Sequence record: OR983333.1
DNA length: 64,000 nt
DNA from: Escherichia phage 1-6af
Reading direction: 5' to 3' (one strand)
A model generated the notes under the pieces. It was not told where the DNA came from and ran no database searches. It worked only from the letters and a program-made list of their open reading frames with translations. The position numbers and the translations under genes were made by a program. This document shows positions 49,421 to 60,453 of this stretch, one piece after another. Numbering within the stretch: position 1 is the stretch's first letter; each line of letters starts with the position of its first letter.

Positions 49421-49510
49421 TCCAAGAGCCTCTAGCGAGGATGACAGGGTTCGAACCTGCATACTCCAATTACTTCTTTAACGACCGCTTAGAAGGCGGG
49501 GAAGATACAT
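49421..49510. repeat. palindromic tRNA-like intergenic element
   Basis: 13-bp perfect inverted repeat TCTAGCGAGGATG ... CATCCTCGCTAGA enclosing GGTTCGAACC and a CCGC-CTTCTAA-GCGG stem-loop (minus sense). Confidence 0.45.
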
Positions 49511-49525
49511 CCTCGCTAGAAGCTC

Positions 49526-55294: not shown

Positions 55295-55396
55295 CTTTGA
55301 TTAGATTCTTTGATTAATGCACTGAATCAATGCACTGATAAAAGAAAAGGCGCTACCCGTTAAGATAGCGCCTTATGCTTATTTGAATTGTCTTAC

Positions 55397-56305
55397 TTAT
55401 GCCGCTTGGCGTGCCGCCATAATTTCAGCCGCTTTACGCAATACTTCTTCCTCTTCTGCTTTCGCCGCTTGTTCGGTACGGGTAGCAACCGTTGAAGAGA
55501 TACGACTGCGCAGTCCTTCTAACTTCTCCTGCATAGCTGCGATAGTCTTTTCCATTTCATCAGCGTATGAATCGAGGGATTCTAATTCCTTGCTTGATGC
55601 GTTCATCAGATAGTCATCGGAGATCGCTACCGTTGAGGCCGTTACTTTCTTGATGAGTGAGTCGAAAGACTTTTTAACCTTGCCGACTTCTTCACTTAAG
55701 GCGATAGTATTATCGCTAGTAGCGCCGTTGCGCTCATCAGCCAGCAATTTGGCTTCGATACGGATTGCATTCAAGCGTTCAACTAAAGCGTAAATATCCT
55801 GATTAAAATCTTCCTTGTTTTTCGCAGGTATTTGCAGGTGTGCCGCTACGTTGTCATTGCAACCCTTGTAAAAGTTAGGGTTATCGACTTCAATTTCACG
55901 ACCGAGGGCAAAATTTTCGAAAGCATTTGACCAGCGAGCTCGATTTTGTTCCATTTTGGCCTTAATTTGCGCTTCTTTCGCATCTTCTTTCGCTTTCGCT
56001 TCACCTTCCAGATTAATCCACTTTTTACGACCGTTTGCCGCATCAGTGTTAAACTTGATAGGAGTTAAGAAAGTAATTGCAGTGGCAATAACATCCATAT
56101 CACGGAAACGTTCAGTTAACAAGAAGTCAACCGCCGCCTGCAATACGTCCAGCTTCTTACCATTACTGCGGAAGTGCTGTAAGTGCCCTAACAGGAAGTT
56201 AGAAACATCTTGTTTGATCGCCGCGTTATTACTGCGAATGTTGTTAGCCAGAGCATTAAAACCGGATTCGTTAACCAGAGTAAAGATTTTAGCCATGATA
56301 TTCAC
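55397..56305 (-). CDS. hypothetical coiled-coil protein
   Basis: 302-aa helical ORF; AAAGGTGAA RBS. Confidence 0.45.
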   Translation of the reverse strand: MNIMAKIFTLVNESGFNALANNIRSNNAAIKQDVSNFLLGHLQHFRSNGKKLDVLQAAVDFLLTERFRDMDVIATAITFLTPIKFNTDAANGRKKWINLEGEAKAKEDAKEAQIKAKMEQNRARWSNAFENFALGREIEVDNPNFYKGCNDNVAAHLQIPAKNKEDFNQDIYALVERLNAIRIEAKLLADERNGATSDNTIALSEEVGKVKKSFDSLIKKVTASTVAISDDYLMNASSKELESLDSYADEMEKTIAAMQEKLEGLRSRISSTVATRTEQAAKAEEEEVLRKAAEIMAARQAA

Positions 56306-57118
56306 CTTTCAATTGTAAGGGCGCTATTGCCCCGCTCTCTATGAGCTTGTTTAAGTCACTATTAACTTAACTATAACCACTCGTTGTTAAGTAGTTATAG
56401 GTAAGCGGGGCGGTCTTATCAGGAGTTAACCTTGCCGCCCCCTTATCCGTGATGTTTCATCTGGTATCTTTAATTAGTCGCTATAAACGAAGCCGACCTG
56501 ATAGCGATGATCAATCATCACAATAAGGCTGTGTGTCCGACTCTAATTAGTTACATTATTGTAACCGTCGGCAATATCGTCCACTTTGCTTTCGCTCTCG
56601 CCTATCCTTTTATATCAGCTCTCTATCGCTAGTCATCGCCCACTACGGGATACTATTGCGAAAGAGTCACTAACCGCCTAATATTCCGACGTTTTATATC
56701 TTTCAGCGAGTTTACTACATTACCCGACTATGTACTTTCATCATAAGATGAATCTCAAGCCGTTCACATCGTAAACGTTCACACTAAACCTTATTGTTAA
56801 ATAGCAATTTGCCACTTTTAACCACTCCCCGCCGCCCTCAATTGGGCGTTAATTCGTCGGGATTGCCTACCCTGATTAACTTCTTTCACTGTAGCGCCTT
56901 GTTAGCGATGACCGCCGCTACCCTTAACCGTGGGCGATTAGCTTAAGCCTTTGCGTGCACTCAATGAATCCGTTTACCAGTGGTGACGTTTCCAGTAAGG
57001 GAATGTAAAACTGTTTACCCTGATAATTTAGGGAGTTTTACGCCGTTTTATCTGGTATGCTTTCCGATGGTTATTATCATCCAGCATATTCAACCGATAT
57101 AGGAGAATGTTTAAATTA

Positions 57119-57743
57119 TTAAAGAGCGGTAAATCTATCAGTGTGCTTTCTCACACTATGCAACTGTTAGCCGTTGTTACGCTTTCCTTAAGCGGTGATT
57201 TGCTTAAGTGATGCTCATTATGAATCATGTTGTTTTCGCTGTCAACCGCTTTTTAATCTTTTTTCGTCGTTCCCGCTATTGGGAGGATATATCAATCAGC
57301 TTTATTTGATTGAAGATTAAGCGGTGATGCTTAACTTATGATTCATATTGTTAAAGAGCGTTAGCCTTTTAGAGTGTCTGCTAATCACTGTCACATTTAA
57401 GGCTTACTTATTCATTAACGGGCCGCCTACACCCGAACTACTCGCTGCACTATGTGCCACTTTTCCCGCGATACGTTGATTTGGGAACTTGTTAGCGGTG
57501 TATCTGCTAACTTGTGGTTAGTATGGACTACTTTAACCACGTTTGCAACTCTTTTTATCATCTTCTTTTAATTCCTTTCCCTTATCTCGCGTGAATCTAT
57601 GCGAAAGGGCAAGATGATAAGTTTTTAAAGAGCGGGATTTTTTAAGTCATCGCTGACTATGCTCACTATATATCAGGCTGTTTTCGGTGTCAATACTCTT
57701 TTTGAGAATATTTTCACTTTCTAACCTGATTTTTAAAGAGCGG
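57119..57743. repeat. dispersed TTAAAGAGCGG repeats inside a 1.8-kb ORF-free region
   Basis: Copies at 57119, 57351, 57625, 57733 (plus strand) and an inverted GAGCGGGGCAAT copy at 56326-56338; also TWAGCGGTGW-like repeats. Confidence 0.45.
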
Positions 57744-58076
57744 GGCAATTTCTTGCCTTGTATGTTTTACATCGTACCCGATGAAATGAAGTATACGCTA
57801 ATCAGATGAGATTGCAATAGGGTAAAGCAAATTATTTTAAACTTTTTCACTATAGGAAGGTAAAAGAGCAGGCGCACGCGATACATCATAGAAAACGGCT
57901 TGTAAAGCGATATTTAGCGGCCTAAAACGCATCACAACGAGCTAAAAGGGAGTAAGGCATACACTCACCTCATAAAAGAGAAAAGCCTCACTAGGAGGCT
58001 TACAGGAAGGATTAGAGAATCAGATAGATTATGACCATAGGCATGACTACGGCACAATACAGAAGAAAGATTAAGC

Positions 58077-58442
58077 CTATGGATTTACACATTGACCGTT
58101 ACCGGATGCCATTTCATTCATAGACTCATCAAAGAGCGTCAACGATGAGCGCATCAAGTGATCGACCGTAATTTGCTTACCAGTGGTTTCATTTACCAGT
58201 TGAATAGTTTTATCATATGATTGTACATGATCGAAATCATTTACATGTAAAATAATAACTTTAGGTGACTTTTTACCAGTGTCATAGTTTTCTACAATAT
58301 AGGTGCACTGTAAACCGTCAACCGTAGCAGGGGAGAACGTTGCAGCCTTAACGCTACCCATAGCTGACAGCAGGACACCTAACAGGAGAACGACAAGGAA
58401 GAAGCCTACAATCGTTTTAACGACGAATTTAATAAACCACAT
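58077..58442 (-). CDS. membrane-anchored periplasmic protein (superinfection-exclusion-like candidate)
   Basis: N-terminal TM/signal anchor then soluble domain; early-operon position. Confidence 0.4.
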   Translation of the reverse strand: MWFIKFVVKTIVGFFLVVLLLGVLLSAMGSVKAATFSPATVDGLQCTYIVENYDTGKKSPKVIILHVNDFDHVQSYDKTIQLVNETTGKQITVDHLMRSSLTLFDESMNEMASGNGQCVNP

Positions 58443-58640: not shown

Positions 58641-58895
58641 TTAGTTGCCTTTACCCTTAAATAGTGCTACTCTGAGCAGTTCGATTTCTTCCAGCGATAA
58701 GAGAATCCGACGTTGCGCCAAATACTGACCAGCTAGGAGGGTATCCATGATCAAAGCAACAGCGGGAAAGCTCACCGTCTTAATATTATCGCCGACAATA
58801 AACAAGATTAGACACTTGTCAGAGTCATCAGTATATGAGAAATCAATCTCACCATAATTGTGAGTCGGAATAGTAAAGCTATGCTCTTTAGTCAT
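58641..58895 (-). CDS. hypothetical protein
   Basis: 84-aa ORF; 8-nt overlap with upstream gene. Confidence 0.4.
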   Translation of the reverse strand: MTKEHSFTIPTHNYGEIDFSYTDDSDKCLILFIVGDNIKTVSFPAVALIMDTLLAGQYLAQRRILLSLEEIELLRVALFKGKGN

Positions 58896-59139
58896 GTATC
58901 AATCTTTCACTTAACAGGTTAGCCAGTGACAAATCACCTTTGATATAGATGTCACGAAAATCAGCACGGGTAATTTCAAGGCCAGCAAATTTCAACCATT
59001 TTTTAGCTGACTGAAAATCCATTTTGCAAAAAGTGATAATAGGCACGATAAGCTGACCATCAAGCGTATTAAACATGATAGCAGTATCGCCAACAAAACA
59101 AGAAAAGTCGTTAGATAATTCAACTTCTTTAATAGCCAT
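58888..59139 (-). CDS. hypothetical protein
   Basis: 83-aa ORF; operon context. Confidence 0.4.
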   Translation of the reverse strand: MAIKEVELSNDFSCFVGDTAIMFNTLDGQLIVPIITFCKMDFQSAKKWLKFAGLEITRADFRDIYIKGDLSLANLLSERLIHD

Positions 59140-59860: not shown

Positions 59861-60330
59861 CAGACCAGGACAAACGGGGATACAACAACCGCAGGACAGA
59901 CCACGGGGAAACATGCAAGATAGTGCGGTAATAATATACCACTTAAATAATTGTATAACTCAAACATCAAAGACCATTCGCTACGCTCATGTACGCTGAA
60001 AAAAGAAAGTAATAAAAGAATATAATAACTGTTAATTACTATCTTTCCACTTAATTAATACATACATCATTATTGCACTCATAATCATTACTATTGAAAC
60101 TATTTACACTCAAACTATGGGGGGAATGCGACGCTAACGCTGCCATTGGAACGGTAACAATACGGTATTATTAGACCTGTTATGATTGTGCCTGTACTAG
60201 TTTATACAGTGCTAGCCTTTCTCTCACTCTTTAAAGGGGTACTAAATAAACGGGTAGGTAATGTATTGGGTAGTATACACGGGGGAATAATTACGGGGAG
60301 TAGGCACGGGGAAAGGTGGAACATGTAAAG
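59861..60330. repeat. CACGGGGA(A) and CAGACCA repeat cluster flanking an AT-rich core
   Basis: ACGGGGA at 59874, 59903, 60279, 60293, 60306; CAGACCA three times at 59853-59901; 300-bp AT-rich core between; divergent gene orientation on both sides. Confidence 0.5.
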
Positions 60331-60453
60331 GGAAGGTAAAGGCATTGCCAATAACCCTTTTTTAAATGAGGACTCCCCCTTTTTAGGAAACGCGCGGGAA
60401 GCGGCTAGCCCCACTCGGTCAAATCAGAATTTTAAACTCTTATATATAAGAAT

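Follow-up and report, generated by a model that had tools for sequence, protein, structure and literature searches.

A promoter and boxA array ahead of a large conserved folded RNA in the gene-free early region of phiEco32-like Escherichia phages

The leaders of the ribosomal RNA (rRNA) operons (rrn) of Escherichia coli carry boxA, the site of NusB and NusE: strong sigma-70 promoters in tandem (P1 and P2) come first, next a hairpin with a consensus boxA behind it, and last a long untranslated structured RNA. In phage lambda boxA is degenerate (CGCUCUUA), and large folded RNAs of the GOLLD, ROOL and OLE type, most of which come from organisms that are difficult to work with, rank with the most poorly understood RNAs. 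The gamma-proteobacterial boxA consensus is GYTCTTTAANA (Baniulyte et al. 2017, PMC5725501), and single boxA sites on bacterial chromosomes protect long untranslated transcripts from Rho in Salmonella CRISPR arrays (PMC7665894) and in the suhB leader (PMC5725501). Here we analyse a 1.8-kb gene-free gap in Escherichia phage 1-6af (sequence record OR983333.1; "the window" below is the whole analysed stretch of 64,000 nucleotides), where a multi-copy phage boxA array stands before one large folded RNA and where protection of the same kind is predicted. At the level of sequence the promoters, boxA copies, hairpins and RNA fold are all present on one strand and conserved among relatives, and we put at roughly 0.75 the probability that the gap serves an early transcription unit as its control and leader region, the unit being organised like an rRNA operon and lying wholly on the minus strand.

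Beyond the features just named, the phage unit shares with the rrn leader long-range helices that start right after the antiterminator. It differs in having four promoter/boxA modules, where rrn operons have one leader and one spacer boxA, and in an RNA without rRNA similarity, which lies in a lytic phage and is followed by a protein gene, not by tRNA or 23S rRNA. No counterpart of the GU-rich rrn boxC was identified in the unit, although no search aimed at boxC was made; the UUUAAAC... that follows the boxA nearest the RNA (boxA #1; Table 1) enters the closing helix of domain I.

A preliminary description of this DNA had singled out positions 56306-58076 as free of open reading frames (ORFs) of 60 aa or more on either strand, which our search bears out (the longest has 50 aa); if the adjoining gene is taken to begin where it does in relatives (ATG at 56296), the gap becomes 56297-58076, or 1780 bp. 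Its GC content ranges from a minimum of 0.34 up to 0.46. The further claim that such an absence is unexpected by chance proved weak, since 16% of 1000 dinucleotide-preserving shuffles likewise contained no ORF of 60 aa or more, and the longest ORF was 50 aa or less in 3.4% of 1000 such shuffles of the gap. On its own the absence of ORFs is only mildly unusual; the unusual feature is the conservation of the gap. Comparison with related phages, which had been proposed as a check, showed that of 97 related records nearly all leave the gap without annotation. The left 1050 bp of the gap equal the neighbouring gene in conservation, with ~90% identity and almost no indels among 18 genomes from three genera. 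The fraction of variable sites is nearly equal for the three codon phases of the gap (0.43/0.42/0.41), whereas gene 124 next to it (the gp124 homologue of Table 1) shows 0.28/0.19/0.79; the level in the gap is roughly half the third-position rate of that gene. The DNA of the gap is therefore constrained, but not as protein.

The repeat that had attracted attention, TTAAAGAGCGG, is the reverse complement of boxA (GYTCTTTAANA), and the motif taken from it reads CCGCTCTTTAA(N)A, that is boxA, on the minus strand. The four reported direct copies are real: TTAAAGAGCG occurs exactly four times in 64 kb (57119, 57351, 57625 and 57733), in one orientation and at spacings of 108-274 bp, base 11 being G in three copies and T at 57351. 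They had been placed on the strand opposite to the neighbouring genes, which is the wrong strand, for motif and promoters work on the minus strand, in gene sense; nor is the repeat a promoter or iteron, as had been considered, but the host antitermination signal. Perfect boxA matches number only four in the window, all minus and all within 57117-57741 (625 bp), against 0.6 expected. In many relatives boxA #1 reads GCTCTTTAACAATTTA, the same as E. coli rrnH boxA plus flank: the rrnH leader has CTGCTCTTTAACAATTTATCA where many phage copies have CCGCTCTTTAACAATTTAAAC, and identity with that leader spans 16-18 nucleotides (nt; CTGCTCTTTAACAATTTA), with 18 consecutive bases in one distant relative. 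All 22 related loci compared hold 3-6 boxA matches each, at least three of them in the spacer on the gene-sense strand; distant relatives hold 2-3, with no antisense copy upstream.

Two of the four boxA copies in the window sit 25-83 nt downstream of the predicted starts of sigma-70 promoters that match 11 of 12 consensus positions; across relatives a boxA lies 17-190 nt downstream of each promoter, and boxA copies alternate with promoters. Nearly every boxA (17 genomes) has a predicted hairpin ~0-15 nt upstream, often with a GNRA loop and with stems that vary or covary, a few of these hairpins being weak (-0.8 to -2.5 kcal/mol). Hairpin-then-boxA is the boxB-boxA order of rrn leaders, rrnH included. 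The hairpin GGCAAtttcTTGCC of the preliminary description is found at 57744-57757, directly before boxA #4, and its stem is longer or covarying in O18-011 and MN05, while PAS59 and TH34 have another hairpin sequence at the 5' end of the P3 transcript. The TWAGCGGTGW repeats noted earlier also hold up, with three copies (57189, 57318 and 57492) against 0.25 expected; they are hairpins with a CACC-containing loop, two of them at predicted transcript 5' ends. Judged by its consensus, its place on the sense strand downstream of promoters and its upstream hairpins, the array has the sequence hallmarks of an antiterminator of the rrn BoxA type. An intergenic ATACCGCTCTTTAACAATTTAAAT was also seen in an unrelated bacterial contig from a metagenome (ORMF011721194.1, 315-336), which is probably the chromosomal boxA of another bacterium and not a phage relative.

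The promoters agree with earlier work: according to the SU10 paper this spacer holds three sigma-70 early promoters in SU10, as it does in phiEco32, and the upstream mini-operon ends in a terminator. The counterpart of that terminator (58001 to 57983 here) is annotated in the SU10 record and listed in SU10 Table S2. P1 is the SU10 early promoter 'ttgacaccgaaaacagcctgatatatagtgagcatagt' between coding sequences CDS120 and CDS121, and P3 is SU10 promoter 'ttgacagcgaaaacaacatgattcataatgagcaca', kept in all relatives at ~905-925 nt from the ATG. The equivalent of the weak site P0 in phiEco32, SU10 and Paul is TTGACA-16-TAATAT. Within the variable segment there are a weak promoter-like site (TTGCAA-17-CATACT, 57548 to 57520), the hairpins GUUAGC-AGAUACACC-GCUAAC (57511 to 57491) and UUAGC...GCUAA (57384 to 57361), and the TWAGCGGTGW copy at 57492; in SU7, PAS59, EK010 and TH43 a TTGACA-16-TAGAAT promoter lies 17 nt upstream of boxA #2. 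The promoter-boxA modules differ among genomes in number (3-5) and spacing; the RNA downstream does not. One candidate of the preliminary description was a cluster of promoters driving small plus-strand RNAs, of which the promoter cluster and the predicted noncoding product stand, whereas the strand is the minus strand and the product would be one ~0.9-kb structured RNA joined to the next gene.

That RNA extends from 57210 to 56318 (minus strand), ~890 nt from the proximal predicted start and ~800 nt after the last boxA. For a minus-strand alignment of 20 genomes (A1) we obtained a consensus of 233 pairs in 35 helices, several of which join positions 280-300 nt apart; the count leaves out all RNAalifold pairs that touch the untranscribed promoter (A1 columns 18-53). 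In 98.9% of the sequence-by-pair cells the pair is formed; sliding the partners by 1-3 columns lowers this to 34-47%. At 77 pairs both sides have changed in compensation, whereas slid controls give 5-12 such pairs and none of 500 shuffles reaches 77 (34 +/- 3), and the covariation score is 0.243 against 0.03-0.06 in controls. Since G-U cells number 516 and A-C cells 17, the fold belongs to the gene-sense strand. Single-sequence folding gives -277.6 kcal/mol, against -228 +/- 7 in shuffles (z = -7.3). The region thus shows what marks a structured noncoding RNA, namely strand-specific compensatory pairs beyond the controls and no coding signal. The closing helix of domain I covaries, also in the distant relative far39, and domain II contains a subdomain of 140 nt (56724 to 56585), modelled as R1. 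Rfam 15 (including GOLLD, ROOL, OLE, group I and II introns, RNase P, tmRNA, 6S and rRNA) gave no match in the region at gathering thresholds and, at E-values up to 5, scattered chance-level matches of 13-21 bits; a tRNA scan of the region found none, and no similarity to the RNA was found in 5,426 E. coli genomes.

The inverted copy reported just upstream of the gene start is present as well (56326-56341, 94% complementary to 57734-57749), and in the fold it corresponds to GCUC-AUAGA-GAGC and GGGGC-AAUAGC-GCCCU of the 3' hairpin series. Pairing of boxA #1 (CCGCUCUUUA) with the inverted copy UAGAGAGCGG near the gp124 start was considered and rejected as the preferred pairing: an A-to-C change in 4 of the 20 genomes (O18-011, MN05, NJ01 and Bas92) puts a mismatch in the middle of that helix. 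The same change falls in the loop of the local hairpin GCUC-AUAGA-GAGC, which PAS59 compensates.

The 97 phage records that have a gp124 homologue are also those that have the RNA. A protein search added more distant gp124 homologues at 68-71% and 47-50% identity, and every contig that carries one has 1.4-3.4 kb of gene-free DNA upstream with the same layout: 2-3 promoter-boxA modules, the last of which places its boxA 870-936 nt ahead of the ATG. The succession of promoter/boxA array, RNA and gp124 homologue is kept at a gp124 identity of only 47-50%. A sequence-profile search with A1 detects the RNA in the distant relatives; when 33 sequences are aligned, what is conserved is a core of blocks that are unpaired or lie in loops, and the stems are entirely replaced. 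Each genome contains a single match to a covariance model of the 140-nt subdomain, and in the intermediate clade the match is strong. The mini-operon upstream (homologues of genes 125-128) is absent from the 67-69-kb Kuravirus clade (Bas92) and from the distant relatives (Logan contigs), which keep the array. In Salmonella phage 7-11 there is no boxA, no comparable gap and no match to the RNA model; searches of IMG/VR by protein or DNA pattern returned the same five known genomes, and a single metagenome scan returned close relatives only (87-94% identity) besides the unrelated boxA contig mentioned above (L035). The distant contigs have ~3 kb of gene-free DNA upstream of gp124, of which ~1.6 kb lies beyond the array and may contain the genome terminus.

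Two short blocks of the conserved core deserve mention. In 31 of 33 RNAs the loop CAAUUG (56839-56844) is kept without change on a stem whose sequence is entirely replaced; being self-complementary, the loop could make a kissing or dimerisation contact. Another CAAUUG (56310-56315), restricted to the close clade, lies just 5' of the gp124 Shine-Dalgarno sequence. An unpaired AUGUAGU (56714-56720, minus strand) is invariant in 33 of 33 RNAs and resembles the AATGTA core of promoters for the phage sigma factor gp36; most genomes read TATGTA at this site, and no promoter has been reported at 56714-56720.

Table 1. Features of the gap and its flanks in the window, in the order of minus-strand transcription.
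Feature	Positions	Strand	Sequence and remarks
Intrinsic terminator closing the upstream early mini-operon	57983..58001	-	AAGCCTCCTAGTGAGGCTT then U-run; terminator scan
P0, weak promoter-like site	57790..57817	-	TTGCAA-16-TATACT (9/12); upstream of boxA #4
boxB-like hairpin	57744..57757	-	GGCAA-GAAA-UUGCC (GNRA loop), directly 5' of boxA #4; = GGCAAtttcTTGCC
boxA #4	57731..57741	-	GCTCTTTAAAA; perfect consensus match
P1, early sigma-70 promoter	57665..57693	-	TTGACA-17-TATAGT (11/12); predicted start near 57658
Hairpin at 5' end of P1 transcript	57645..57658	-	AGUCA-GCGA-UGACU (GNRA loop); upstream of boxA #3
boxA #3	57623..57633	-	GCTCTTTAAAA; perfect consensus match
Variable segment	57347..57546	-	present in about half of relatives; gap fraction 0.41-0.55
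boxA #2	57349..57359	-	GCTCTTTAACA; perfect match; followed by hairpin UUAAGC-AUCACC-GCUUAA (57334 to 57317)
P3, early sigma-70 promoter	57217..57245	-	TTGACA-17-CATAAT (11/12); predicted start near 57210
5'-terminal hairpin of P3 transcript	57187..57208	-	CUUAAGC-AAAUCACC-GCUUAAG; = TAAGCGGTGA repeat of the preliminary description
boxB-like hairpin	57140..57157	-	AGUGUG-AGAAAG-CACACU, 12 nt 5' of boxA #1; 3/7 pairs covary (helix 3)
boxA #1	57117..57127	-	GCTCTTTAATA; perfect match inside an invariant 30-nt block
Domain I	56818..57115	-	~298 nt; helices 4-14; long-range closing helix whose 5' strand starts 2 nt after boxA #1
Inter-domain hairpin	56799..56817	-	AAGUGGCA-AAU-UGCUAUUU; helix 15
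Domain II	56520..56797	-	~278 nt; helices 16-26; 15-bp long-range closing helix
3' hairpin series	56318..56519	-	helices 27-35; first hairpin 56519 to 56506, end 56318
Shine-Dalgarno sequence and gp124-homologue ORF	55397..56308	-	AAGGUG (56308 to 56303); ATG at 56296; 299 aa
Intrinsic terminator directly after gp124 homologue	55347..55374	-	terminator scan

Taken together, these elements suggest the following course of events. Host sigma-70 RNA polymerase would start at 3-4 tandem early promoters, as the promoter sequences indicate and in agreement with the SU10 and phiEco32 literature, and soon after the predicted starts the nascent transcript would present a small hairpin and then a consensus boxA. 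By analogy with rrn, this hairpin-boxA element would recruit NusB and NusE (S10) together with NusA, NusG and SuhB, and the resulting elongation complex would resist Rho over the 0.9-1.45 kb that are left untranslated. Immediately beyond the last boxA, the transcript would fold into the conserved multi-domain RNA that the covariation reveals, and the boxA-tethered complex may help its long-range helices to form, as has been proposed for pre-rRNA. In rrn elongation complexes the nut-like element is held and long-range RNA pairing is chaperoned (review PMC8632103), and the 5' strand of the first long-range helix, which begins 2 nt after boxA, parallels the delivery of the pre-rRNA leader to its distant partner proposed there (PMC8632103). 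Transcription would then continue through the gp124 homologue to the intrinsic terminator.

Several observations weigh against this reading or temper it. The aligned sequences are related, so that the compensatory counts overstate the number of independent events, for which the slid-partner controls are a partial remedy, and the covariation fits an RNA and a same-strand single-stranded DNA equally well. In the farthest clade the matches to the covariance model of the 140-nt subdomain are weak, and in an alignment made without regard to structure the most distant clade keeps 52-56% of the pairs; with distant sequences added 22 of 31 subdomain pairs covary, in an alignment (A4) that was fitted to the model and hence leans towards it. 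The RNA is rich in G over C (215 G, 169 C) and heavily folded, and for these reasons Rho may act poorly on it whether or not boxA is present. Finally, the gp124 homologue yields no functional clue: its AlphaFold model (predicted local distance difference test, pLDDT, 72) shows, apart from a small beta element, mostly long helices and coiled coil and has no significant fold match in the PDB, and the protein belongs to no Pfam family.

The most serious alternative, though in our judgement less likely than not, is a purely cis-acting role in gp124 expression, the folded RNA being only a 5' untranslated region that stabilises the early mRNA against 5'-end-dependent decay or gates gp124 translation. 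Its appeal lies in the layout: the RNA ends ~10 nt before the gp124 Shine-Dalgarno sequence and always adjoins gp124, the terminator after gp124 makes RNA and gene appear as one unit, 5'-terminal hairpins follow the promoters, and the close-clade CAAUUG 5' of the Shine-Dalgarno sequence could pair with the conserved CAAUUG loop. That proximal CAAUUG is not kept in the distant clades, however, the conserved unpaired blocks lie far from the ribosome-binding site, and ~800 nt with 35 helices and long-range domains, maintained at a gp124 identity of 47-50%, far exceed the known needs of a leader. Its size, its multi-domain fold and a conservation deeper than that of the adjacent protein suggest that the RNA most likely has a function of its own; it would be produced at the start of infection and might act together with gp124 or a host factor. 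A mere spacer or simple mRNA leader is less likely.

We judge it improbable that the hairpin and boxA modules are nut sites of the lambda type that need a phage N-like antiterminator protein. As in lambda nutL and nutR, where N protein and Nus factors bring about processive antitermination, boxA here lies beside a small GNRA-like hairpin on phage early transcripts (for three of the four boxA copies in the window the hairpin is of the GNRA type, like lambda boxB), the hairpin of module 2 lies downstream of boxA as in nut, and the CACC loop motif shared by three hairpins is a possible protein-binding site. Yet in lambda a degenerate boxA is followed by a boxB that binds N, whereas these boxA copies have the full rrn consensus, with 16-18 nt the same as rrnH, and the hairpin usually stands 5' of boxA, in rrn order. 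Furthermore, this phage is virulent, no N-like gene was found, the upstream proteins offer no candidate (no Pfam matches), and the mini-operon that encodes them is missing from relatives that keep the array. With full-consensus boxA copies, no candidate protein upstream and an array kept without the mini-operon, a complex of host factors only appears more likely than a lambda-N-like one, although a divergent N-like protein may exist.

A transcription-primed origin, at which a structured pre-primer RNA would form an R-loop as ColE1 RNA II or the T4 and T7 origin transcripts do, strikes us as quite improbable. The ColE1 and T4 systems resemble this locus in a promoter-driven folded noncoding RNA from a gene-free region, and RNA II too is a conserved folded RNA; the origin of these phages is unmapped, strong promoters feed a noncoding transcript rich in G over C, and the plus-strand GC skew falls to -0.26. 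Those RNAs hybridise to their template for priming, however, whereas nearly all of the 800 nt here lie in covarying intramolecular helices, which opposes hybridisation with the template; neither a DnaA box nor an AT-rich unwinding element lies alongside, the cumulative GC skew has no turning point, and boxA/Nus complexes are known for structured RNA and Rho resistance, not for priming. Still less can be said for a double-stranded DNA element, whether the iteron origin of the preliminary description or an array of sites for a DNA-binding protein: the four direct 11-mer copies and the dispersed repeats in a gene-free region near the genome end would suit it, but the region has neither tandem arrays nor DnaA boxes, the repeat is host boxA on strictly one strand in every relative, and the conservation is explained by strand-specific base pairing. 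That the region encodes very small proteins below the 60-aa cut-off, as had also been suggested, can hardly be right, for although ORFs of 25-50 aa exist on both strands and some records annotate ORFs of 55-66 aa in the variable upstream part, substitutions in the gap lack the three-base periodicity of gene 124, and the annotated small ORFs differ among genomes and lie in the variable promoter part, outside the conserved RNA.

As to the phage itself, the 4.4 kb around the gap are 99.8% identical to Kuravirus Escherichia phage 1-6bf and 88-96% identical to dozens of Kuravirus podophages (phiEco32-like, Gordonclarkvirinae). The counterpart of the gap lies between genes 124 and 125 in phiEco32 (72787-74730) and between CDS120 and CDS121 in SU10. 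By homology the right physical end of phiEco32 maps to ~60406 of the window, and gene orientation and GC skew switch near ~60100, which indicates that the deposited sequence is circularly permuted relative to phiEco32 and that the window spans the genome-end junction (~60100-60406). The gap thus lies near the early-gene end of the genome, at a distance of 2.3-4.1 kb. The early region of T7 likewise has a cluster of strong promoters for host RNA polymerase (A1, A2 and A3) within a few kb of the early-gene end of the genome, but there the leader before gene 0.3 is short and contains RNase III sites, with no boxA and no large structured RNA.

Downstream, the gp124-homologue ORF always directly follows the structured RNA, and the terminator after it (55374 to 55347), also annotated at the same place in the SU7 record, would end a discrete transcription unit composed of the RNA and gp124. 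The neighbouring proteins, those of the upstream mini-operon included, have no Pfam matches, and PHROGs assigns them only to families of unknown function or gives them doubtful labels. Two early proteins of 121 aa (58077-58442, minus strand) and 83 aa (58888-59139, minus strand) are called 'terminase' and 'polymerase' in RefSeq and PHROGs; as they are far too small and have no Pfam match, these labels look like propagated mis-annotation. The 121-aa protein starts with a hydrophobic, signal-like segment. Elsewhere in the window an Rfam tRNA model matches 49436-49514 (minus strand) with 29.7 bits, just over the 29-bit gathering score, and ARAGORN found no tRNA anywhere in the window.

In kind, the RNA comes closest to GOLLD, ROOL and OLE, with which it shares a length of 0.6-0.9 kb, many covarying helices and an association with phages, and in this comparison the conserved self-complementary loop hints at a possible self-association. 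It differs from them in having no Rfam match, in belonging to virulent E. coli podophages and in being fused to an mRNA, with boxA before the RNA. We advance only tentatively the idea that it represents a new class of large 'ornate' RNA, made through hijacked rRNA-style machinery and acting in trans, as RNA or as a ribonucleoprotein, in host takeover or counter-defence; its partner in such a particle may be gp124 or a host factor, and self-association may occur via the CAAUUG loop. An abundant early transcript with several consensus boxA copies could, in addition, deprive host rRNA synthesis of Nus factors. We found no description of the RNA or the boxA array in the literature on phiEco32, Kuravirus and Gordonclarkvirinae, the two original phiEco32 papers being outside that search, and priority is accordingly uncertain; in 2022 the group that had characterised phiEco32 transcription described the antitermination strategy of the related phage 7-11 as 'to be defined'.

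The finding joins two known kinds of phenomenon, boxA-protected noncoding transcription and large ornate RNAs, and could prove to be a new RNA class. It gives content to 1.8-2 kb that some 100 deposited genomes leave blank or fill with doubtful small ORFs, and it places a candidate RNA in virulent E. coli phages for which K-12 derivatives now serve as hosts (BASEL Bas86-94) and which are hence tractable. If the proposed reading is true, these phages would offer a clear case of a lytic phage that copies the antitermination signal of host rRNA, and a concrete explanation of how phiEco32-like phages keep Rho from ending their early transcripts within a long untranslated stretch.

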